Assembly: GCA_051294375.1 (NCBI GenBank)
Contig: JBJCIZ010000223.1
Coordinates: 1-22,560 of the forward strand
From: Paraspadella gotoi
Lineage: Eukaryota; Animalia; Chaetognatha
Direction of reading: 5' to 3'
Length of the DNA stretch: 22,560 nucleotides
Below the pieces are notes generated by a model. It saw nothing but the letters and a program-made list of their open reading frames with translations, did not search any database and was not told the origin of the DNA. Each line of letters begins with the position of its first letter. Positions within the stretch are counted from its first letter, which is position 1. Of the stretch, positions 4,522 to 19,685 are shown piece after piece. The translations under genes and the position numbers were made by a program.

Positions 4522-5363
4522 AAAATGCATAAAAGTCCTACAAACAAAGATACATAGCTGGCTCTAAAATATGTTCTCTCAAGGCAATATCTAAACATTT
4601 TTCAAAATGTTTAAAGCTAATGCTAAATCATCTTAAAGTATACTATCAAGTAGTTTTTCAAAGATCTGGAATAAAACATTATTGGATAATTGATAATTCT
4701 TTGGAGTTTTTTGGAAAAAATTTCTCAATTAAAAACAGATTTTCTAGAAACATATGATTTTTCAACATTATATCCATCACTTCCTCATTATGAAATCAGG
4801 AGTAAGCTAATAATTACATTCAGAACAATTTTTTCTAGGGAAAATAAAACATATATAAATGTAAATCATAATAAAGCTTATTTTTCAAATACTAAGAATA
4901 AGGGGTATATTTTTTTTACTGAGAAAGATTTGAATATTGTCCTCAACTTTATTTTAGATAATGTTTTTGTCAAATTTGGCTCCTTAATATACAAAACAAA
5001 CATTAGGAATACCAATTGGACTAGATTCTGGTCAAGATATTGCCAATATGTTGTTTATTTATTTTTTGAATCAACATATATGGAAAATATGTCAAAAAAT
5101 AATTTAGGAATCGCAAGACAATTTAAAAATTGCTCAAGATATATTGATGACCTATTTATTCAGCCGATTTTAAGGATTTTAAAATACATTTTGCGAACAT
5201 ATATCCAGCCGCACTGACTGTAAATAAATCTAATAGTACAGATACAAATGTAGATTATCTAGACATTAATATTAAATCAGAAAATAAAAATCTTACTCTT
5301 TCAGTCTATGATAAAAGGGATTCCTTTTCTTTTGAAGTAGTTAATTACCCATATATGGACAGT
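4522..5363 (+). pseudogene. Penelope-like element reverse transcriptase, frameshifted and truncated (Naiad/Chlamys-like motifs)
   Basis: Across frames: KMHKSP..YIAGS, HYWIIDNS, TYDFSTLY, QTLGIPIG, RYIDDL, VDYLDI, YDKRDSFSFEVVNYPYMDS; several single-base indels. Confidence 0.88.
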
Positions 5364-6236: not shown

Positions 6237-7882
6237 GAGTTCCATGAATGTTTGAGCTGCCTCAACTTTCTGGGTGACTTTCGAGATGGCGACGATCGTG
6301 ATTTCAAATGTTTGTCTATTACAAAATGATTAAAAACAGTTCACAAATCATAAAAAGTCCATTAATATATAAACAAACGGTCTTAAAACCTCAATTTTCA
6401 GAGAGATTTTTCGATCGTAGTAGTTAGTTTCACTTGAAATCTCACAAATACTGTTTCGCCCGGTGAAAGAACGTTTTGCCTCGTCTTTATATCTTTATCT
6501 CGGTCACATGAACGCGTCCTTATTGTAAGCATTTTTACGGTCAATTTTTGCTCTGGTCGTCTCAACGTTTAGCGAGAATCTCGATCAATTTTAATTTGTT
6601 TTCTGGATCGAATCATGAACTTTTAATCGTCCGTTCGAAACTTAGTTTCTACGCGTTTCTATACCGTGTTTTGTGTGTTTTCCAAATAAAATTCGTTTCT
6701 AGAACTCTTGTCGATTTATTTTGAATGGACGACGCTTGGAACGTTAGTCTCCGCGGGCGAGAATATAGATTCTTCTACAGTAGAAACGAAGAAACTGCTT
6801 CGCGGATATAACGTCGAATTTTTGCAATAAAAAAAAATGATGACTCTCAAAATTCTCTCGTCTATCGACGATGTTCATTTTCATTTATGTAAAAAAGTGC
6901 GCGCTTGAATTTCCTTCAACATTTATTGAAGTTTCAATGGATTTGAAAAAGATTCTTGTTACTGGTCTGAAAGAAATAAAGGCTATGAATGAAACAAAGA
7001 CTAAAGAATTCGCTAACGAAATCTTTGGAAGAATTGAAGGATTCGGAAACCTTGAAAAACAATTTCGTGAATCCATTGCCCTCAATGAGGCGGCGATGAA
7101 AAGGATTATGACAGAGACTTGGGCTCAATTTGGAAAAAATGAAAGAAGACGAGATTTCTGCTAAAGATCATGAGCTTTTTCAAAATCAAAATAATTTTTC
7201 AAAATCTGACCACTATTCTTTCTCAATTCTGTGTTGGAAACTCTCTCTCTCTTTGTAAAAGTCTTATTTTTTTATTCGCGACGTTTTCTCTTGGAAACTC
7301 ACGTTAAACTGTTCGACTGGGTGAAATCACGAACGCTTGTCTCCGCGGGCGTGAAGTCAAAAAGATGTTGAAAAGTGTTGAAGGTAATAAGCACACTAAT
7401 AAATATCTGTTTGGTAGTATCCTTATAACGGTCTGTAGGACAAAAAGCATTTATGGATTGATAGATTGATAGATTCAGAAAGGGTTTTCAACCTAAAGAA
7501 AAACTGAATATGCTGGAGTTTATACTAATGTTTACCATTTCCTTTTTTTCACATACCAAAATGACAAAAGAACAAAAACCTTCCCTGGTTAGACTTTTTG
7601 CATTATGGATGAAATGGGAACAAAGTTCAGTTATGGATTTCTCATTTAATATTTTAAGAATTCTGAACTCCATAAACATTATCCATAAAAGAGTCAATAC
7701 TTTTTATTGATCGAACTCTTAATGTAAATGCATCAGTGAGTAGTGATTTTTAAAAAAATTCTGGTTTTGCTGGATATATATGTAAGTTAAAATAAAGACC
7801 ATAACATACTGGTTTAAAATTGACTAAGAGGGTTACGAAGCAATATATTTTTCACAAAACTTGCAGGGACCTGCTATGTCAT

Positions 7883-7944
7883 TATCTTGTAAGAGTGATG
7901 GAGCCTTAAACCACCAAAGCCTGTCCAAAGTCAGGGGCAAGATA
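7883..7944 (+). ncRNA. Twister ribozyme type P5, family A copy 1
   Basis: TATCTTGT AA GAGT GATGG AGCCT TAA ACC AC CAAAG CCTG TCCAAAGT CAGG G GCAAGATA; one G missing in P1 relative to the other copies; predicted cut 7907/7908. Confidence 0.78.
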
Positions 7945-8204
7945 GCTTATTTATTAAATGAATGGATAATTTTTATATTGGTTGTACCAATTTCATAAAA
8001 TTCAGCTCCTTGTATTTTGATGCTAGTGCGGAGTACAATAGTATTCCCCGATCTAATACTTAAGGGAGTGGTCTTTTCATACAATTGAAAACATTCTTTG
8101 AAATATTTTCCACTTCATTGATAGGGAAGCCAGGTACTCTGGGAGTGAATAAACGAGACTGTGAAAGAGTCTTGATTGAAACCTTGCAGGGACCTGCTAG
8201 TCAT

Positions 8205-8267
8205 TATCTTGTAAGAGTGATGGAGGCCTTAAACCACCAAAGCCTGTCCAAAGTCAGGGGCAAGATA
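8205..8267 (+). ncRNA. Twister ribozyme type P5, family A copy 2
   Basis: P5 TATCTTGT/GCAAGATA; L1 GATGG and TAA; T1 TGG/CCA; T2 AC/GT; P4 CCTG/CAGG; predicted cut 8230/8231. Confidence 0.85.
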
Positions 8268-8531
8268 GATTATTTATTAAATGAATGGATAATTTTATAT
8301 TGGGTTGTACCAATTTCATAAAAATTCAGCTCCTTGTATTTTGATGCTAGTGCGGAGTACAAAGAGTATTCCCCGATCTAATACTTAAGGGAGTGGTCTT
8401 TTCATACAATTGAAACATTCTTTGAAATATTTTCCACTTCATTGATAGGGAAGCCAGGTACTCTGGGAGTGAATAAACGAGACTGTAGAAGAGTCTTGAT
8501 TTGAAAAACTTGCAGGGACCTGCTATGTCAT

Positions 8532-8594
8532 TATCTTGTAAGAGTGATGGAGGCCTTAAACCACCAAAGCCTGTCCAAAGTCAGGGGCAAGATA
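8532..8594 (+). ncRNA. Twister ribozyme type P5, family A copy 3
   Basis: Same core as copy 2; predicted cut 8557/8558. Confidence 0.85.
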
Positions 8595-8964
8595 GCTTAT
8601 TTATTAAATGAATGGATAAATTTTTATATTGGTTTGTACCAATTTCAAAAGACTTTCGGGTGCAATCTTTACTTTTTTAGCCCGGATCGCTTTCGGTTTT
8701 GAGTGCACATCGCTTCCTTCCTTTAGAAATTTTACATTTGTTATTATTTATAAAATACTTTCTTTAAGACATGTAATTCATTGGTAGAATAATTTTAAAC
8801 AATCTTTTTTGTTAACAAATAATAACAAGTAAAATTTTACTATGAAAAATTGTAAGATTTGTAAGATTGTAAGAATCGTTCGAGTGGAAATAAGTTTAAA
8901 TGAAAAAACAAAAAACCTGTTTCCCTATTTGCTTTTTATTTTTTATTAAATGTAAATACAAGCT

Positions 8965-9502: not shown

Positions 9503-10955
9503 AAATTTTTTTATGTTTGCGGTGACTCAAAACAAGAATTTATAGAAAAATTTGAGGCGTGTTTTTTGTGATAAAGAAAAACTGGTATTGTCAAAAACAG
9601 TAAAAAAGCAAAAATGATAAAAATAATAACAACAACAACTAGTATTTACATTGGCTGAGAAAAAGGTCAGCCATAACAAGGTCGGGTAAGAACAAGTTAT
9701 TCTTATTGACCACTACTTTACTACAGGTCACAAAGTACAATGACTTTGTTGTCGTCTTTGTCATTGTATTCGTTGTCGTTGTCGTCTTTGTTCAAATCAT
9801 TTGAGCTCTCAAATGTTTGATGTTATTCTTTTAATTAATCAATATATAATTATTTAAATAATTTATTTTTTTTAAACTAATTAATAAATTAATTAATTAC
9901 CGTTAATGACCGTGGGCAGATCCGGCATTGTTTGCTCAAACTTGTTTATTAATAATTTTGATTTATTTATTTTATATATATTTTTTTTATTTGCTTTTTT
10001 GTTCAGTGCGAGAGGGGAAAAAAAGAAAAGATAGAGAGTGTTAAAGATATAAGTATGTATAAGCACAACATTATGCAATATTGCCAATAAAAAAGATCCA
10101 TCCTTTTGGTTCAAACTTGTTTGTAATATGAAAAACCTTATGGATTTAAAAAAAGTAGACTTAAATTTAAAGAAAAACAACAAAATTATAAGAAATAAAA
10201 TTTTTAGTTTTATAAAATTAAAAAAGTTTAATTATATTTTAGTTTAACTTATAATTACAGTTTTTTCAGATAAAAAAATCTTTTGTTCAGCTCAGATTTT
10301 ATTTCAATATATTAAAAAGAATAATTAAAAAAATAAATATATAATTTTTTTCATAGATTCTCGACCAAAGAGGAAGAGAGAACAAAAGAAAACAAAAAAA
10401 TAAAAGAAGAGAATGAGAAAACGTGAATAAAAAAATTAAGAGCAAACAATTTTAAATATTGAAAATAAATATTGAAAAAAAATTAAAAAAAAAAATCAAG
10501 AGAGAGCAGGGGGTTGCAAAGATTTTAATACATTAAATACCTTTCATTTCTAACCAATAAAAACAAATGACCAGGAAGCGAACACGCAGGGTTATTATAG
10601 CTTCCGTGTTCAATCCTTTATTCTCAATTTTTCTATCGCTCCCGGTTTCGGGTTCTTCAAAAATCGGCCGCTTCCACAGTGTTCGCTTACGCTTTCCGGA
10701 TTGCGTCCACATCTCTGAAAGAAAGCAATATATGTTTGATTAAATAATATCGATTAAATACTAAATCCTGCGATGATAGAAAAATAGAAAAATAGAAAAT
10801 AGTGAAACAAGTAATTTGCAAATTTTCATAAAGGTTATTAATACAACTGTATGGTAGACTAAAACCCACCAACCGTTTCATCAGCGCCATTGGTGCCGGA
10901 GGCAAGTCATTCGCCTCCCAACCCAAGGTCCGGGGTTCTAGCCCGGTGGTCGTCT

Positions 10956-11031
10956 GGCAGTTAAGAGGGACGGGGCGCTTAACCCGCCTGTAACATGTGT
11001 TACAAGCCTGATCCGAAGCTCAGGGACTGCT
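10956..11031 (+). ncRNA. Twister ribozyme type P5 in LTR1 (family B)
   Basis: GGCAGTT AA GAGG GACGG GGCGCT TAA CCC GC [P3 CTGTAACA..TGTTACA(A)G] CCTGA TCCGAAGC TCAGG GACTGCT; predicted cut 10980/10981. Confidence 0.85.
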
Positions 11032-11252
11032 TATATTGAACGGTTCTGTCACTAACAGATAACAATAATTACTGTCTCTTCATTGGTAGGCCCGACTTCC
11101 GAACACAACAGCAACAACAACACTTTCAGGCGACATGCCTCAACCTGGCGATGCACTTTCCGCCCACACACATCAGGCAACATGCCTCAACTTGGTGACG
11201 CACTTTCCACCAACAACAATTCACTGAAGAGACGCAACAGACATCTTCCTAC

Positions 11253-11264
11253 AGGAGGGGGGGA
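11253..11264 (+). promoter_or_regulatory. Polypurine tract of family B element
   Basis: AGGAGGGGGGGA abutting the TG of LTR2; repeated at 11672-11682. Confidence 0.9.
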
Positions 11265-11299
11265 TGTATGGTGGACTAAAACCCACCAACCGTTCATCA

Positions 11300-11371
11300 G
11301 CGGCCATTGGTGCCGAGGCAAGTCATTCGCCTCCCAACCCAAAGGTCCGGGGTTCTAGCCCGGTGGTCGTC
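11300..11371 (+). promoter_or_regulatory. tRNA-derived (Gly-CCC-like) head with Pol III A/B-box-like motifs inside the LTR; also in LTR1 (10884-10954), LTR3 and the solo LTR (18917-18989)
   Basis: Acceptor-like GCGGCCA/TGGTCGT, T-arm CCGGG-GTTCTAG-CCCGG, anticodon-loop-like CTCCCAA, ~72 nt; anticodon stem is broken, so not a functional tRNA. Confidence 0.7.
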
Positions 11372-11372
11372 T

Positions 11373-11448
11373 GGCAGTTAAGAGGGACGGGGCGCTTACC
11401 CGCCTGTAACATGGGTGTTACAGCCTGATCCGAAGCTCAGGGACTGCT
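11373..11448 (+). ncRNA. Twister ribozyme type P5 in LTR2 (family B)
   Basis: Same fold; the TAA is read as TA here (real loss or homopolymer error). Confidence 0.72.
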
Positions 11449-11500
11449 TATATTGAACGGTTCTGTCACTAACAGATAACAATAATTACTGTCTCTTCAT

Positions 11501-11513
11501 TGGTGAGCCCGAC
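11501..11513 (+). promoter_or_regulatory. Primer-binding site (tRNA-Trp-like) of family B element
   Basis: TGGTGAGCCCGAC one base after the LTR CA; 12/13 match to TGGTGACCCCGAC, the complement of the common animal tRNA-Trp 3' end. Confidence 0.8.
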
Positions 11514-11791
11514 TTCCGAACACAACAGCAACAACAACACTTTCAGGCGACATGCCTCAACCTGGCGATGCACTTTCGCCCACAACACATCAGGCAACAT
11601 GCCTCAACTTGGGTGACGCCACTTTCCACCAACAACAATTCACTGAAGAGACGCAACAGACATCTTCCTACAGGAGGGGGGATGTATGGTGGACTAAAAC
11701 CCACCAACCGTTTCATAGCGGCCATTGGTGCCGGAGGCAAGTCATTCGCCCTCCCAACCCAAAGGTCCGGGGTCTAGCCCGGTGGTCGTCT

Positions 11792-11869
11792 GGCAGTTAA
11801 GAGGGACGGGGCACTTAACCCGCCTGTAACATGGTGTTACAGCCTGATCCGAAACTCAGGGACTTGGCT
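11792..11869 (+). ncRNA. Twister ribozyme type P5 in LTR3 (family B), T2 pair mutated
   Basis: L4 reads TCCGAAAC instead of TCCGAAGC; P1 GGCACT; otherwise the same fold. Confidence 0.68.
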
Positions 11870-12058
11870 TATATTGAACGGTTTCTGTCACTAACAGATA
11901 ACAATAATTACTGTCTCTTCAACTTTTTAAAATTTTTTGTTTATTAATGAAAATTTAAAAGAAAAAAATTCAGCCAATAATGATGATGATGACGATTTTT
12001 TAAGGTTTTTTCTATTTTTACTAATTTTTTCAAAATTTGAAAAAAAATTATAGTACTA

Positions 12059-12673
12059 TGTAGGATCGAACCACGGACTTTTTCGTTTGGAGTGATCCGG
12101 TCATCATCCGGGACCAGCCAGGGTCACAAAAGAATCATTTTTCGAATGTACATAATTATCTTATAAACTTTACAATTACAATAAAAGGATCACCAACGGG
12201 ATTCGATCCCGTAACTTTGTAGCCACGTTCATAGCCTTAATCAAAGTCGCCACAGCGACATATTGCGTATTGATATTCCATTGGTTTACTTATGATTGTA
12301 GCATATATACTATTATAATACTAAGACAAAAGAACACCATAAAACCGCTAGATAGCACTAGCAATAATTGTTATGAATTCTACTTGTAGAATCTTTCCAC
12401 TTTAATTTCTTTGCTCTCTTACAAAGGACATTTTATATTGTTAATGTTTATTTACATTGTTGTTTATTTACATTCTTTATATTTAATGTTAATGTTTATT
12501 ATTGTGTGTGATATAGATATTGCAATTGCTTGCTGATAAAAGCATTTGAATATCTATATGCTTTGATTATTTTATTAAGTCTGTTTTTATACTTGAACAA
12601 ATAAAGACTTTGTTCTGGGAAAATTTTAATTATTCAAAGTGAACTCTTGAAGTCAGTGACGAAAACCGCCACA
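12059..12673 (+). repeat. 5' LTR (615 bp)
   Basis: TGTAGGATCG...CCGCCACA, direct repeat of 17419-18037. Confidence 0.97.
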
Positions 12674-12676
12674 TCT

Positions 12677-12690
12677 TGGTGAAACCCGAC
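12677..12690 (+). promoter_or_regulatory. Primer-binding site (tRNA-Trp-like, imperfect)
   Basis: TGGTGAAACCCGAC three bases after the 5' LTR. Confidence 0.75.
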
Positions 12691-12761
12691 ATCGAAATCG
12701 ACGCCTCCCAAATTCTCTAGAGGCGCCTTCCAACCTTCTGAACTCCAACATCGGCCCACCG

Positions 12762-13904
12762 ATGCCGCTCAAGCCAGAGGGCCCAACTACTCGGTCGCAG
12801 AGCATCGCCAATCGCCTCACGACGCCATCCTGTCCCCGACGCCTCACCCCCTCTCCCCGTTATAGCGAAGAAGAAGTTGAAGCACCCCCAGCAAACCGTA
12901 AAGGCGGCCCAACGTTCTCCTTCTCTCCTGAGGACGTCAACGCCTTTGAGGACGCCCAGGCAACTATGGCTGAAGCTCCGCCAACTCAGGCAGAGATGCA
13001 GGCGCTCCGCACCGCCCTCGACGCTGCAATGGCGGCGACCAAGGCTGCACAAGATGCTTTGGCCCGTAACGACAGGCCAAAAAAGCCTGAGCTCCCTCCA
13101 TTTGACAAAGACAATATTGAAATATGGATTCGCCGCGTTGAAGCGGCCTACGTCCGCGCTAAAATTATTTCTCCCACGGATAAGTTCGCGTTTCTTGAAT
13201 CAAAAATTTCCGTCGACGTCAACCCAAGGATCAACGCTTATCTTTACGGCGAAGCATCGGACGCCAACTGGGCGGCGTTCCTCGTTTATCTCCGCTCCGA
13301 GTACGGCCTCTCCACGCGGCGCCAAGCCGAAAACCTGCTCGACGGCCGCGTCAACCGAGATGGCATGAAACCATCTCAGCACTTGGCCAGGCTCACCGAC
13401 CGTACGGCGACCGTTTCCATCGACGATGTCCGTAAGGAGATAATCATGCGAGGCCTGCCCCCGGAAATCCGCGCGAATCTCGTCGACCGCGCCAACGAAA
13501 TGACCGCCGTACAATTTGCAGAAGCCGCCGACCGCCACTTCGACGCGGAGGGAAAGCCGTTGCACTCAAGCACAGCTCCGCAAATTAATTTGGCCGACGC
13601 TCAGAGGGACGTCAGCGACGACGAAAGCGATCAGGAGCCTCTCAGCGGCATCAACGCGGTTCAAGGTCGTCATGAAAAACGCCGCCCCTTCATTCCGCGC
13701 GGCCACCCAAAATTCGACGACGTCAATCAACGTCAACCGGAAACGAGCGGCGCCCAGACTTCCAAGCTCAGGCGTATTTGCAGATTCCATCTCAAATATG
13801 GCGACGCAGCATTCCGTTGCGAAAAAGGTTGTGCTCGAGCAAATGAAAAGCGCAACGAGAAGGAGATGAAAGCGGGAAACGCCATGGCGGGCCGGCGACG
13901 GTGA
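12762..13904 (+). CDS. gag: Gag (380 aa)
   Basis: LPPFDKDNIEIWIRRVEA capsid-like N-terminal motif; CRFHLKYGDAAFRCEKGC = C-x2-H-x9-C-x3-C knuckle typical of the CsRn1 clade. Confidence 0.95.
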   Translation: MPLKPEGPTTRSQSIANRLTTPSCPRRLTPSPRYSEEEVEAPPANRKGGPTFSFSPEDVNAFEDAQATMAEAPPTQAEMQALRTALDAAMAATKAAQDALARNDRPKKPELPPFDKDNIEIWIRRVEAAYVRAKIISPTDKFAFLESKISVDVNPRINAYLYGEASDANWAAFLVYLRSEYGLSTRRQAENLLDGRVNRDGMKPSQHLARLTDRTATVSIDDVRKEIIMRGLPPEIRANLVDRANEMTAVQFAEAADRHFDAEGKPLHSSTAPQINLADAQRDVSDDESDQEPLSGINAVQGRHEKRRPFIPRGHPKFDDVNQRQPETSGAQTSKLRRICRFHLKYGDAAFRCEKGCARANEKRNEKEMKAGNAMAGRRR

Positions 13905-13920
13905 ACGCCGTGCCCCGCCA
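13874..13920 (+). promoter_or_regulatory. -1 programmed ribosomal frameshift signal
   Basis: G GGA AAC slippery heptamer (13874-13880) in the gag frame; GC-rich hairpin TGGCGGG-C-CGGCG...CGCCG-TGC-CCCGCCA (13885-13920); the -1 frame is open from 13874 into pol. Confidence 0.88.
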
Positions 13921-16900
13921 AACCAAAGATTCGCCCACAAGATCCTATCTGCTCCACGTCGTCGACGCCAGCGACGGCCGAGCATGGCTTGTGGATGGCG
14001 GCGCCCTACTATCACTTATACCACCTACGCCAGAACAACGCGCCGCTGGCCCACAAGGTCCACAATTGCAGGCCGCCAATGGTAGTGCAATTGCCTGTTA
14101 TGGCACTAAGCAGATGCGAATTACCCTTGGCCCCCGCATTTTCCCCTTTGAAGTTCTCGTCGCCGATGTAACCCAAAATATTCTCGGCGCCGACTTCCTC
14201 GCCGAATTTTTCTTGGCACCAAACCATCGCGATGGAATCCTTTTTGATCTCAGAGATTATTCTACCATCTCCTGCGCCAAGTCAATCGGCCAGCCCCCTT
14301 CTCCAATCAATTTTGTCGGGCAGAAGGACGACCGTTTTTACCAACTGCTTGACAGCTTCCCAGCCCTGTCTAAGCCAACTTTCGAAGTTAAGGAGCCAAA
14401 GCATGGGATCCACCATTTCATCCCAACTCAAGGCCGTCCATGCCAAGCACGTGCCCGCCGACTGTCTCCGGAGAAGTTGGCCATTGCCAAGGCCGAACTC
14501 GATCGCATGGTGGCACTTGGCATCGCGGTCCGCGCCAAGAGCCCCTGGTCCTCGCCGCTGCATTGCGTTCCAAAGTCTGACGGCGGCTGGAGAGTGTGCG
14601 GCGACTACCGCCGTTTGAACGCCCAAACAGTTGCCGACCGTTACCCGGTTAAATTGTTGGCCGACTTCAACGCTCAACTGGCCGGCAAACACATCTTCTC
14701 GAAGGTGGATCTACTGAAAGGTTACCACCAAATTCCAGTAGCCCCAGAGGATGTGCCAAAAACCGCCGTCATAACGCCTTTTGGACTATATGTCTTCCTC
14801 CGGACGCCCTTTGGCCTGAAAAACGCTGGCCAAGATTTCCAGCGGCTCATGGATGAAATCTTGGGAGAGCTGCCGCGAGTCTACGTCTATTTAGACGACA
14901 TCCTGATCGCCAGTGAAACTCCCGAGCAGCACCTTGAGGATCTCAGGGCCGTTTTCTGCGCCCTGGAGGAGAATGGACTCGTGGTCAACAGGAAAAAATG
15001 TCTCCTTGGCAAATCGTCACTCGAATTTCTCGGGTATTTCGTCGACGAGAGTGGCGTCCGTCCCTTGCCCCAACGCGTCGAAGCCCTCCGTCAAACGACG
15101 CCGCCAACGACGGTCAAGGAGTTGCAGCGTTTCTTGGGGATGATTAACTATTATCGGCGTTTCATCCCCAAGATCGCTCACCACGCAACGCCACTCTACG
15201 ACTCACTTCAAGGCAAACCAAAGCACCTCGAGTGGACGCCAGAGTGCCAGCGTGGTTTTGACGCCGTCAAGGAGGCACTCGCAAACTCCGTCCTCCTCCG
15301 TCACCCACGAACCGGTGCTCAGCTTGCGTTGACAACGGATGCTTCCGACCATGCTGTAGGCGCTGTACTGGAGCAGCGTGGAGACAGGGGGTGGGAGCCT
15401 CTCGCCTTCTTTTCGGCCAAACTCTCCGACAGCCAAAGGAAGTGGCCCCCCTTTGACCGCGAACTATATGGCGCTTTCCGCGCCTGCCGTCATTTCCGGC
15501 CATGGCTCGAGGGGAGGGCGTTCACGCTCTACACAGATCATATGAGCCTGATCCCCGCCCTCCACAAGAAAAGTGAGCCCCAAACGGCGCGCCACACTTT
15601 CCAGTTGTCCGTCATTTCGGAGTACACAACGGACATTCGCCATGTCGAGGGCAAGGCTAACGTCGTTGCGGATGCCTTGTCCCGTCCAAACCCACCTCTG
15701 CCCCCGGTTGTGGCGTCAATCGACAAGCCCGTCGAAGCCGCAAAGGAAGAGGATCTCTCACTAGTCGCCGCGGCGCTCGCCCCTCAAGGCATCGACCTTC
15801 AAGACCTTGCTCGCTGCCAGCCACTCGACCGGGATTTCCGCCAACTAATGGAGGATTCCCGCACTGGCCTGAGATTCCGCCGAGTTAACATTGGCGACCA
15901 GGAAATCATTGTCGATGTGTCAAATGGGCCGGCACGCCCGTTTGTTCCCGAATCTTGGCGCCGGCGAGTTTTTGACGCCATTCATGGCCTTGGTCACCCA
16001 GGGATCGCACGTACCCGCGAAACAATCGCGGAAAAGTTTGTCTGGCCCACAATGCGAGCGGACGTCACCCGCTGGGCCCGAGACTGCATCCCATGTCAAC
16101 AAGCCAAGGTCTCGCGACACGTCGTCCCACAAATTGGCGAATTCGAAGTCCCTCCACGCCGTTTTCAACATATTCACGTCGATCTGGTCTCCATGCCCAC
16201 CTCAAACGGTCACTCATACCTGCTAACTGCAGTTGACCGTTTCACAAGGTGGCCAGTGGCCATTCCAATCAAGGACATGTTGGCTACCACGGTCGCCGAC
16301 GCCTTCACACATGGCTGGGTTGCCTCCTTTGGCATCCCGTCCGACATCACAACTGATCGTGGATCACAGTTCCTCTCTGCAATTTGGCGCCAACTCGCGA
16401 AATCCTGGAACTGCAGGCTCCACCACACTGCAGCCTACCATCCAGAAGCCAATGGACTGGTCGAGCGCTTTCACCGCCGCCTTAAAGAGTCATTAATCGC
16501 TCTCGGCGTCGAGGAGCCCGCCAAATGGTACTGGCGCCTTCCTTCCGCCCTCTTGGCGATTCGTACGACCATCAAACCCGATATCGGCGCATCTCCAGCT
16601 CAACTCGTCTATGGCGACGGCCTCACGATTCCTGGCGCCGTCTTAAACTCCAGCGCCAACGCCCAAGAGGAAGCTGAGGCACGGCGCCACCTTCGCGATC
16701 ACCTTCGCCTCGAAGTGGAACGACTGCAGCCGGCGCCCACCAGTAACCATCGCCAGCCCCGCGTCCACCTTCCGGACAGCCTCGTAACCGCATCTTACGT
16801 TTTCGTCCGACGAGGCGGCGTGAAACCGGCATTGACCGCGCCCTACGAAGGCCCCTTCAGGGTAGTCGGGCGTGATAATTTGAACTTCCGAGTGGAACTT

Positions 16901-17455
16901 CCAGGAAGAGGAGTAGAAACTATCGCAATCTCCAGAATCAAGCCAGCGAACGTCTGGGACGACGTCATCGAGGACGACGCCCCTCCGGAAGAAGCGTCAC
17001 CGCCAACGCCGCCGCCTCGCGGCCGGCGACCTGGCCCCCGAACTCGGAACATTCCCCCATCGTCAATCGTCACTCGCTCAAAAGCAAAAAGAGATAATAG
17101 AACTCAAGCAGTGAGTGAATCTCACGTCGAAGGCGAAGACCTCGCGGCGCCACTTCCGGCCACGCCCTCCCTCCATTCGGAGCAAATCGGCGAATCAACA
17201 GAAGCGGCCCGGGCTCATCCCGCCGCTGATCCGTTTCCCGTGACACCTCAACGCTTAGATCTCGCCGTCCAAGCATCGCCAGATGATCCCCGGCCGAACG
17301 TCAACGCGTCGTCACGCCCAGACTACGCATCGGTCCTCAGATTTATCCTCGCGAAGCAAAAGGAGCCCAAACGTGTCTCTCTCTCCTCGTCTCCCTCAGT
17401 CAACTCGTCTGGGGGGGATGTAGGATCGAACCACGGACTTTTTCGTTTGGAGTGA
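13874..17455 (+). CDS. pol: Pol polyprotein (protease, RT, RNase H, integrase), expressed as a Gag-Pol frameshift fusion
   Basis: LVDGGA protease; YLDD RT; TDASD...ADALSR RNase H; HGLGH...CIPC, HVD/TDRGSQF/VER integrase; PYEGPF GPY/F motif; no stops. Confidence 0.97.
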   Translation, partial: GKRHGGPATVNAVPRQTKDSPTRSYLLHVVDASDGRAWLVDGGALLSLIPPTPEQRAAGPQGPQLQAANGSAIACYGTKQMRITLGPRIFPFEVLVADVTQNILGADFLAEFFLAPNHRDGILFDLRDYSTISCAKSIGQPPSPINFVGQKDDRFYQLLDSFPALSKPTFEVKEPKHGIHHFIPTQGRPCQARARRLSPEKLAIAKAELDRMVALGIAVRAKSPWSSPLHCVPKSDGGWRVCGDYRRLNAQTVADRYPVKLLADFNAQLAGKHIFSKVDLLKGYHQIPVAPEDVPKTAVITPFGLYVFLRTPFGLKNAGQDFQRLMDEILGELPRVYVYLDDILIASETPEQHLEDLRAVFCALEENGLVVNRKKCLLGKSSLEFLGYFVDESGVRPLPQRVEALRQTTPPTTVKELQRFLGMINYYRRFIPKIAHHATPLYDSLQGKPKHLEWTPECQRGFDAVKEALANSVLLRHPRTGAQLALTTDASDHAVGAVLEQRGDRGWEPLAFFSAKLSDSQRKWPPFDRELYGAFRACRHFRPWLEGRAFTLYTDHMSLIPALHKKSEPQTARHTFQLSVISEYTTDIRHVEGKANVVADALSRPNPPLPPVVASIDKPVEAAKEEDLSLVAAALAPQGIDLQDLARCQPLDRDFRQLMEDSRTGLRFRRVNIGDQEIIVDVSNGPARPFVPESWRRRVFDAIHGLGHPGIARTRETIAEKFVWPTMRADVTRWARDCIPCQQAKVSRHVVPQIGEFEVPPRRFQHIHVDLVSMPTSNGHSYLLTAVDRFTRWPVAIPIKDMLATTVADAFTHGWVASFGIPSDITTDRGSQFLSAIWRQLAKSWNCRLHHTAAYHPEANGLVERFHRRLKESLIALGVEEPAKWYWRLPSALLAIRTTIKPDIGASPAQLVYGDGLTIPGAVLNSSANAQEEAEARRHLRDHLRLEVERLQPAPTSNHRQPRVHLPDSLVTASYVFVRRGGVKPALTAPYEGPFRVVGRDNLNFRVELPGRGVETIAISRIKPANVWDDVIEDDAPPEEASPPTPPPRGRRPGPRTRNIPPSSIVTRSKAKRDNRTQAVSESHVEGEDLAAPLPATPSLHSEQIGESTEAARAHPAADPFPVTPQRLDLAVQASPDDPRPNVNASSRPDYASVLRFILAKQKEPKRVSLSSSPSVNSSGGDVGSNHGLFRLE
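17411..17418 (+). promoter_or_regulatory. Polypurine tract
   Basis: GGGGGGGA abutting the TG of the 3' LTR. Confidence 0.9.
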
Positions 17456-18037
17456 TCCGGTCATCATCCGGGACCAGCCAGGGTCACAAAAGAATCATTT
17501 TTCGAATGTACATAATTATCTTATAAACTTTACAATTACAATAAAAGGATCACCAACGGGATTCGATCCCGTAACTTTGTAGCCACGTTCATAGCCTTAA
17601 TCAAAGTCGCCACAGCGACATATTGCGTATTGATATTCCATTGGTTTACTTATGATTGTAGCATATTATACTATTATAATACTAAGACAAAAGAACACCA
17701 TAAAACCGCTAGATAGCACTAGCAATAATTGTTATGAATTCTACTTGTAGAATCTTTCCACTTTAATTTCTTTGCTCTCTTACAAAGGACATTTTATATT
17801 GTTAATGTTTATTTACATTGTTGTTTATTTACATTCTTTATATTTAATGTTAATGTTTATTATTGTGTGTGATATAGATATTGCAATTGCTTGCTGATAA
17901 AAGCATTTGGAATATCTATATGCTTTGATTATTTTATTAAGTCTGTTTTTATACTTGAACAAATAAAAGACTTTGTTCTGGGAAACATTTTAATTATTCA
18001 AAGTGAACTCTTGAAGTCAGTGACGAAAACCGCCACA
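17419..18037 (+). repeat. 3' LTR (619 bp)
   Basis: Differs from the 5' LTR by about four single-base insertions, by eye. Confidence 0.97.
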
Positions 18038-18881: not shown

Positions 18882-19117
18882 TGTATGGTGGACTAAAATC
18901 CACCAACCGTTCATCAGCGGCCATTAGTGCCGGAGGCAAGTCATTCGCCTCCCAACCCAAAGGTCCGGGGTTCTAGCCTGGTGGTCGTCTGGCAGTTAAG
19001 AGGGACGGGGCACTTAACCCGCCTGTAACATGGTGTTATAGCCTGATCCGAAGCTCAGGGACTGCTTATATTGAACGGTTCTGTCACTAACACATAACAA
19101 TAATTACTGTCTCTTCA
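18882..19117 (+). mobile_element. Solo LTR of family B miniature element
   Basis: TGTATGGTGG...CTCTTCA, near-identical to the LTRs at 10848-11921; no PBS or PPT in the flanks. Confidence 0.95.
18991..19066 (+). ncRNA. Twister ribozyme type P5 in the solo LTR
   Basis: Intact core; P3 has a G-C to G-U change that keeps pairing; predicted cut 19015/19016. Confidence 0.82.
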
Positions 19118-19685
19118 CTTGCTTATTTGTCTACTTACCATGAATATTTGTACCTGAGATTGGAAATTGTATTATCTCAAAATGTGGCTACTGTTTCTGC
19201 TTTATTACATGGTTCTAAGAATATAAGGTTATAGTTAAGGTGTTTTACATGTTAGAACTGTTTGGTTTCCAAAGATACTTATTTGAGAGCAGGTTATTTG
19301 ATTTGAATTGATTTGAATTCAATAATTAATTAGGGCACAGATTAGGGCACTCTAGAAGAATAGATATGAAACTTAGATTTGTTTTATTTGCGATAATCTC
19401 GGATTATCTAGGTCGCGCGTTAAGAAGCGCTTCAGTTTAAAACTTCAGATTTCTGAGTGCCAGTTTGTGGCTTCGATTCTCTTGTGCCCTTTTTTAATTT
19501 ACTTGGTTTTATGATTTAAGCTTAAGGCTTACTGATGTTGCTGCTTTATTGTTCTCAAACCCTTGGGAGTTCAAGTAAGAAGGTTTGGCCTTCTCCTGTT
19601 TGACAGGACCAAGCCTCAAGGCTTTTGTCTATTGCTCATTTTGTCTATAAGGATTCATTGATTTTTATGCCATGGCTAATAGCCA

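Follow-up and report, generated by a model that had tools for sequence, protein, structure and literature searches.

How could a short, non-coding LTR element, in which a tRNA-like unit runs directly into a ribozyme-like fold, be transcribed and obtain the ends of its RNA? This question is raised by positions 10850-11921 of the window, by which we mean the whole stretch of 22,560 nucleotides that was analysed. The preliminary description of this DNA proposed that the element supplies its own Pol III promoter and that a twister ribozyme then trims the primary 5' end. We found that the region is a tandem TRIM of three LTRs of ~233 bp and two internal parts of ~184 bp, and that the window also holds a solo LTR:

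10850-11082 (+): LTR1, 233 bp with TA...CA ends, its start at TATGG taken from contig loose ends at the equivalent position 18884 and from the host-junction consensus
11083-11266 (+): internal part 1, with a PBS (11084-11096), two 47-bp repeats, a PPT (11253-11264) and 2 bases lost on integration
11267-11499 (+): LTR2, head at 11300-11371
11500-11684 (+): internal part 2, PBS at 11501-11513
11685-11921 (+): LTR3, in which a G>A change in L4 breaks a pseudoknot pair
11924-11928 (+): T5 run in the host flank, outside the element (the LTR ends at 11921) and overlapping the right target-site copy
18884-19117 (+): solo LTR with a perfect 4-bp TSD (CTTG/CTTG), head at 18917-18989

Both internal parts begin with a PBS and end with a G-rich polypurine tract (PPT), and the PBS of copy 2 matches 12 of the 13 bases of a tRNA-Trp 3' end printed in the available part of the Helenus supplement (PMC10886601). 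Two LTRs, a PBS, a PPT, no coding sequence, a monomer of 650 bp (below 1 kb) and a short TSD are the features by which TRIMs are recognized. A TG follows the PPT, and the LTR start at TATGG lies two bases inward of it; a start at this TG (10848) was dropped because contigs from public runs have their loose ends concentrated at the TATGG position (157 at 18884, 43 at 18883 and 37 at 18882 in run X3). With the start at TATGG, the TSD of the solo LTR is perfect and that of the array (ACTG/ACTT) has one mismatch. The family has a high copy number: 16,064 contigs of run X3 align to the solo LTR region, 234 X3 contigs pass the LTR end into unlike, AT-rich DNA, and the public runs hold hundreds of other insertions. 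The three array LTRs differ mostly by single-base indels; as these are absent from the contigs, they are read as assembly errors. The coverage of run X9, which is presumed to be RNA, extends into the host flanks and is hence not read as expression. The family variation used below is that of one species, drawn from assembled contigs of public runs, and not cross-species covariation. Pattern searches for relatives gave no match in viral contigs, one in metagenomes, within a bacterial gene, and four in prokaryote genomes, with a likeness confined to the pattern; the small-share run X10 (2 contigs) is no evidence of relatives. By contig depth, 10777-10827, just upstream of the array, is a second high-copy repeat, and repeated sequence flanks the solo LTR too.

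The segment preceding the ribozyme-like fold had been described as a tRNA-Gly(CCC)-like unit in which the acceptor and T arms pair and the anticodon stem is broken. Its parts in LTR1 are:

10884-10954 (+): degenerate, probably tRNA-derived head, acceptor stem intact and anticodon stem broken
10891-10902 (+): A-box-like segment TGGTGCCGGAGG, with C at the A14 position
10915-10921 (+): anticodon-loop-like CTCCCAA, with CCC at positions 34-36
10934-10944 (+): B-box-like segment GGTTCTAGCCC, with one mismatch, at position 57

The unit occurs in all four LTR copies and measures 73 nt in the solo copy (18917-18989); the LTR1 head is short of one acceptor 5'-strand G (an insertion behind 10885) that the other three copies and the public contigs keep. 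The acceptor stem pairs at 7 of 7 positions, and the A and B boxes lie at tRNA spacing. The T stem does pair, but solely in a register slipped by one base. The broken anticodon stem around CTCCCAA was borne out, as was the alternative GGAGGC/GCCTCC hairpin, which is present in the minimum-energy fold of the head; this fold is not a cloverleaf. The head RNA is predicted to form a three-way junction (z -0.7 to -2.1), which, with no cloverleaf, fits a promoter acting at the DNA level.

At its normal threshold ARAGORN found no tRNA in the window, and Rfam gave no tRNA match at E<=10. When lowered to 86% of the threshold, ARAGORN called tRNA-Gly(CCC) in two of the four copies, each time at the equivalent place in the LTR, and any call at this setting appeared in 7 of 1000 shuffled LTRs; lower thresholds are noise, because 24 calls arise in the window at 80%. 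We also used a tRNA covariance model for which 60 of 142 phage tRNAs served as input. Among its 24 window matches, two heads ranked 3rd and 4th (rough E 0.017 and 0.49), and the LTR1 and LTR3 heads were not listed at E<=10. The alignment given by the model is in register, with T8, G18-G19, U33, the variable loop, GGTTC, A58 and C61 at tRNA spacing, A14 replaced by C and one T-loop base missing. Moreover, the head matches a phage tRNA in register at 79% over 38 nt, and GGTTC is also kept by the Helenus B box in the available text of PMC10886601. Among family variants, an A at the A14 position makes up 3.5-12.6% of depth in four runs, and T10950C (9-22% of depth), T10953C (24-66%) and G10956A (22-52%) keep or improve head pairing; two common changes turn acceptor-stem G-U into G-C. 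These variants support the tRNA register of the head, whose conservation equals that of the ribozyme and exceeds that of the LTR tail. We therefore hold with high confidence that the head derives from a tRNA, although standard thresholds miss it and the isotype Gly is read only from the CCC triplet. The A box, the B box, their spacing and their conservation in the family make a tRNA-derived type-2 Pol III promoter in the LTR well supported, and we predict, with somewhat better than middling confidence, that the element uses Pol III.

The head indeed ends just before twister P5, as noted earlier: P5 begins at 10956/10957, two bases after the acceptor stem. The fold that follows comprises:

10957-11030 (+): type-P5-permuted twister-like fold, identified from the Rfam Twister-P5 consensus, the S. 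mansoni table and a descriptor, with P3, P4 and P5 in the predicted fold
10969-10973 (+): GACGG, with the putative general-base G at 10969
10974-10979 (+): 6-nt linker in place of P1
11011-11020 (+): L4
10980/10981 (+): predicted U/A cleavage site, from the position of the U-A step in twister ribozymes
near 11397 (LTR2, one A fewer), 11816/11817 and 19015/19016 (+): predicted equivalents of the cleavage site

The landmarks follow in P5 order, namely P5, a P2 strand, GACGG, the linker, UAA, CCC, GC, a 7-pair P3, P4 with a 10-nt loop and a closing P5 helix. Against the Rfam type-P5 consensus, which was obtained via natural twisters from viral contigs, the changes are compensated: the 3-pair pseudoknot T1 reads CCG/CGG for CCC/GGG, an A-U pair replaces G-C in closing L4, and P4 is CUG/CAG. 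Catalytic residues and both pseudoknots, one of them compensated, are intact, and P3 nearly equals that of S. mansoni twisters in the available table of PMC8501958. In its element order, catalytic residues (UAA step and general-base G), 10-nt L4, two pseudoknots, and P2 and P4 in P5 order, the fold resembles type-P5 twisters (RF02684) and, as far as the available table shows, Perere-3 T-variant twisters (PMC8501958). Unlike RF02684 twisters, it has no P1 hairpin, a CCG/CGG pseudoknot and a closed P5 helix, it lies within an LTR, and it falls below Rfam detection: its RF02684 score does not exceed 37.6 bits, and Rfam reports no twister even at E<=10.

All four LTR copies carry the fold, so that a ribozyme motif stands in each LTR, and two of the four match the full descriptor, which is missed by LTR2 (without an A) and LTR3 (broken pseudoknot pair). 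This descriptor of the twister core was written after the sequence had been seen and makes no use of P3 or P5. By chance it matched 1 of 60,000 shuffled LTRs, and 300 shuffles of the window yielded 2 matching places. Among 290 fetched loci it gave 21 matches, 18 of which are Rfam twisters above the gathering score; of the two others with an Rfam result, one scored below it and one had no match, and one confirmed twister (L003) was missed. P2 has two direct pairs and, in addition, a mismatch or bulge. Its 3-nt strand, one base shorter than in the Rfam consensus, has counterparts in 8 of the 18 confirmed phage P5 twisters (L012, L015, L016, L022, L034, L047, L068 and L078, all above the gathering score), whereas the linker at the place of P1 has 6 nt here and 15-30 nt in these 18. 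In the available account of a large test of natural twisters, which covers type-P1 ribozymes only, P1 and P2 defects were tolerated and pseudoknot and catalytic defects were not (PMC11662667). The linker GGCGCU is the family majority (97% of depth at its varying base) and pairs with itself over six bases at -8.3 kcal/mol; about 1 in 20 random 6-mers is self-complementary. It recalls the dimeric hammerheads with palindromic loops presented in parts of PMC7229834 and PMC6765202. Among the variants listed, the fold has no non-CpG site that varies at 5% or more (0 of 70), against 7 of 51 for the LTR tail (P 0.002), a count that excludes CpG-type changes and five P3 loop bases, takes the error-ridden 10996-11007 from the solo copy and treats variants that are not independent. 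An alternative twister register via GAGGG was rejected, as it breaks P2 and one pseudoknot pair. On the landmarks, the compensated pseudoknot and the intact catalytic residues, we regard the twister fold as very probably real, and the predicted ribozyme as likely to be active.

The absence of T4 runs from the array, despite AT-rich surroundings, and the T5 run behind it had also been taken to favor Pol III. Indeed, no TTTT occurs in 10848-11921 and a T5 starts at 11924; the statistics did not bear out a depletion. A 417-bp unit is free of TTTT in 22-25% of dinucleotide shuffles (P 0.22-0.25) and in 52-54% of mononucleotide shuffles (P 0.52-0.54), and the whole array in 2% of shuffles, a figure that counts one unit 2.6 times. 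The AT-rich surroundings are the wrong background, because the array is ~50% GC. The T5 is host DNA; a T5 begins within 5 nt of 4.8% of host positions, and behind the solo LTR the first T4 lies at 19243, 126 nt downstream. Pol III could read through only a unit free of TTTT, but for a single unit this absence is not significant, and the proposal of an own Pol III promoter draws its support from boxes, spacing and conservation and none from the T runs.

Cassandra TRIMs carry 5S-derived Pol III promoters in their LTRs. The 5S rRNA-derived LTR sequence that marks Cassandra and Ajax was not found here (no Rfam 5S match at E<=10); on this result, derivation from 5S was also rejected for the segment that follows the head. 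The Ajax LTRs available for comparison share a 9-base word with the cleavage region, and by eye the rest of the core is absent from them. For the head, Helenus is a closer precedent than Cassandra. The available text on Helenus and TRIMp3 TRIMs (Kojima 2024, PMC10886601) describes tRNA-derived LTRs and puts forward their Pol III use as a proposal. Like Helenus as described there, the element is a TRIM below 1 kb with tRNA-derived sequence in each LTR, a PBS, a PPT, solo LTRs and tandem arrays; like animal Helenus families, it has a 4-bp TSD (with a mismatch in one of two) and a Gypsy-type PBS, and its TA...CA ends are shared with some wasp families. With putative tRNA-derived A and B boxes within the LTR, weaker than standard thresholds, the element carries the sequence features that define Helenus. 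It is unlike the Helenus elements described in that a ribozyme fold follows the head and T4 is absent. By eye, a run of T4 or longer follows the tRNA part in 28 of the 30 wasp Helenus LTRs in supplement parts 8-9, and several bivalve Helenus LTRs are without one in the available sequences (PMC10886601). None of the Helenus families in these sources matches the motifs searched.

The only 2 of those 30 wasp LTRs (parts 8-9, by eye) without a T4 run belong to the gall-wasp families Helenus-2_SyJa and Helenus-2_SyUm. In part 9 of the supplement (PMC10886601), their LTRs show by eye a short U3, a tRNA-like B box and then a complete type III hammerhead whose loops 1 and 2 are complementary over ~12 bases. 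This is the layout of our TRIM, with a short U3, a B box, a ribozyme, no T4 in the LTR and a tRNA-Trp PBS. The two families differ, as far as their printed sequences go, in having a hammerhead rather than a twister, no sequence likeness by eye and longer internal parts with T4 runs, because of which the Pol III reading is weaker for them. In the available text of PMC10886601, the word 'ribozyme' appears in one reference title only and the hammerhead is unmentioned. Helenus-2_SyJa and Helenus-2_SyUm are apparently animal LTR retrozymes.

With plant LTR retrozymes, as described in the available parts of Cervera et al. 2016 (PMC4918200) and PMC9695139, the element shares a ribozyme in each LTR, a PBS, a PPT, a 4-bp TSD, solo and tandem copies, a proposed Gypsy helper and an LTR promoter upstream of the ribozyme. 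Plant LTR retrozymes differ in having type III hammerheads, tRNA-Met and a length of 600-1000 nt; the reports of them come from plants, and those parts do not speak of a tRNA-derived head. For them, circularisation and reverse transcription round the circle have been proposed (PMC4918200, PMC7761336, PMC9695139, in the available text). Animal retrozymes are described in the available sources as having no LTR, PBS or PPT, and the accessible part of a 2026 preprint places LTR retrozymes primarily in plants (10.64898/2026.07.22.740005). No hammerhead core was found in our element; it appears retrozyme-like in its working, yet it is no member as defined, because its ribozyme is not a type III hammerhead. 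The Schistosoma Sm-alpha SINE-like repeats, in the available account (PMC6765202), likewise contain a tRNA, are apparently transcribed by Pol III, and have a ribozyme that frees units from multimers and leaves the promoter at the 3' end. They differ in being non-LTR and bearing a type I hammerhead; here, the LTR mechanism would return the promoter to the 5' end.

We propose that the element may be a Pol III-driven retrozyme, a chain whose steps taken together we consider evenly balanced between right and wrong. TFIIIC and Pol III would start near 10884, and the transcript, with no T4 in the unit, would read on through the internal part to the next LTR. Twister cleavage at the corresponding U/A step of each LTR would take a 97-nt head off the 5' end and set the 3' end without a terminator. 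Released in this way would be a unit of ~417 nt with no terminal redundancy, whose ends are the two ribozyme halves; since cleavage falls in the middle of a P5-type ribozyme, P2, P5 and one pseudoknot would hold these ends together for a host RtcB-type ligase. A Gypsy reverse transcriptase primed by tRNA-Trp would then copy the circle into solo LTRs, monomers and LTR-internal arrays, and the head, travelling at the 3' end of the unit, would be regained by both LTRs. P1 may consist of one pair and a tetraloop, or form between two copies, which we suggest because the 6-nt linker is self-complementary. Cutting at the 5' end was part of the preliminary description, which was incomplete: since the 3' LTR holds the ribozyme too, a transcript cut at both ends fits better than 5' trimming alone. 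A circle and reverse transcription round it would explain the solo LTRs and arrays. The circle that runs from cut to cut is predicted to fold better than its shuffles do (z -2.9 and -2.2), its junction sequence is that of the tandem array, and it is paired at 54-58%, below the >70% reported for retrozyme RNAs in the accounts available. Such a ribozyme-driven circle would follow the same logic as plant LTR retrozymes and the Schistosoma Pol III hammerhead SINE.

Among other explanations, the best survivor, though an unlikely one, is that the head is the relic of an old SINE insertion, that Pol II reads through from host DNA or an upstream unit, and that only the ribozyme matters, as in plant retrozymes. 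Most copies lack A14, the B box has its mismatch and the TTTT absence is not significant, as a relic would allow; the available text of the retrozyme review permits read-through by any polymerase (PMC7761336), and by eye T4 runs are present in the printed internal parts of the two wasp Helenus families with hammerheads. A relic sits poorly, however, with a head as conserved as the ribozyme and more conserved than the LTR tail, with pairing-compatible variants, and with the absence of AATAAA and TATA(A/T)A, and hence of a poly(A) signal or TATA box, from the element. An active ribozyme would also require productive transcripts to start upstream of the cut site, and it is there that the head is located.

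Trimming of the 5' end alone, with Pol III starting at the head and the RNA ending at a downstream T run, is less likely still. Partial cleavage would keep a redundant end for ordinary strand transfer, and in the available part of PMC8501958, Perere-3 RTE elements are trimmed at the 5' end by twisters; those twisters are type P1 and cut near their own 5' end, whereas here a P5 fold stands in both LTRs. The T5 three bases after LTR3 at this locus could end such an RNA, but it is host DNA and has no counterpart after the solo LTR.

We give a similarly low probability to an inactive twister-like fold, by reason of a competing hairpin or the missing P1, in an ordinary Helenus-type TRIM replicating from linear RNA. 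The minimum-energy fold pairs GGACGGG with CCCGCC, a hairpin that would block both pseudoknots; folding programs omit pseudoknots, and plant retrozyme hammerheads are predicted in blocked folds too in the available sources. The lack of an Rfam match, and the tandem arrays that also occur in the ribozyme-free Helenus LTR-11_DR (PMC10886601, available text), speak for inactivity, but they are outweighed by the compensated pseudoknot, the intact catalytic bases, the chance rate of 1 in 60,000 and a fold free of non-CpG variation.

tRNA-headed TRIMs (Helenus) and ribozyme LTRs (plant retrozymes) are known. Their combination as a tRNA head with a twister was not found in the largely open-access literature searched, nor was any report there of twisters within LTRs or of Helenus elements with a ribozyme. 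If the element cleaves, the LTR-retrozyme strategy would reach a likely animal host and a second ribozyme class, LTR retrozymes would be linked to tRNA-headed TRIMs, and the element would show how a Pol III TRIM sets its 3' end without a terminator. It would also be a natural minimal P5 twister missed by Rfam, giving a simple test of dimeric twister cleavage. More speculatively, and with doubts that exceed our confidence, animals may hold an unrecognized class of LTR retrozymes that are driven by Pol III and linked to Gypsy elements primed by tRNA-Trp. In these, a ribozyme would replace the T-run terminator of Helenus-type LTRs and its class would be interchangeable (a twister here, a type III hammerhead in two wasp families), the twister cleaving as a domain-swapped dimer with P1 formed from two self-complementary linkers.

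A possible source of the reverse transcriptase lies next to the array:

12059-18037 (+): full-length Gypsy-type LTR retrotransposon with Pfam RT, RNase H and integrase domains in order, and a PBS and PPT of the TRIM kind

Its LTRs are 99.35% identical and differ by indels only, its gag-like and pol frames are open, and its RT is ~70% identical to many ENA proteins; no relatives were found in viral contigs. Together with the 4-bp TSD and the primer type, the Gypsy relatives suggest an invertebrate animal as the host. The element is young and is a candidate for the kind of helper the TRIM would need, and the two share no sequence beyond words of PBS or PPT size. Its LTRs contain antisense tRNA-like segments at 12185-12259 and 17545-17619 (minus strand), and also at about 12059-12136 and 17410-17480; 12185-12259 (minus) is the best window match of the phage tRNA covariance model (rough E 0.011).

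Elsewhere in the window, a 324-bp tandem repeat occupies 7856-8647 (2.4 copies, 95% matches) and contains no hammerhead or twister core, and a Pfam search of four other window ORFs gave no match. An ORF fragment at 4690-5217, without a Pfam match, has motifs that resemble what we take to be a Penelope-like reverse transcriptase. A minimal hammerhead-like core at 2439-2475, with a palindromic short helix III and a helix I that looks degenerate, is presumably of the kind described for Penelope-like elements.
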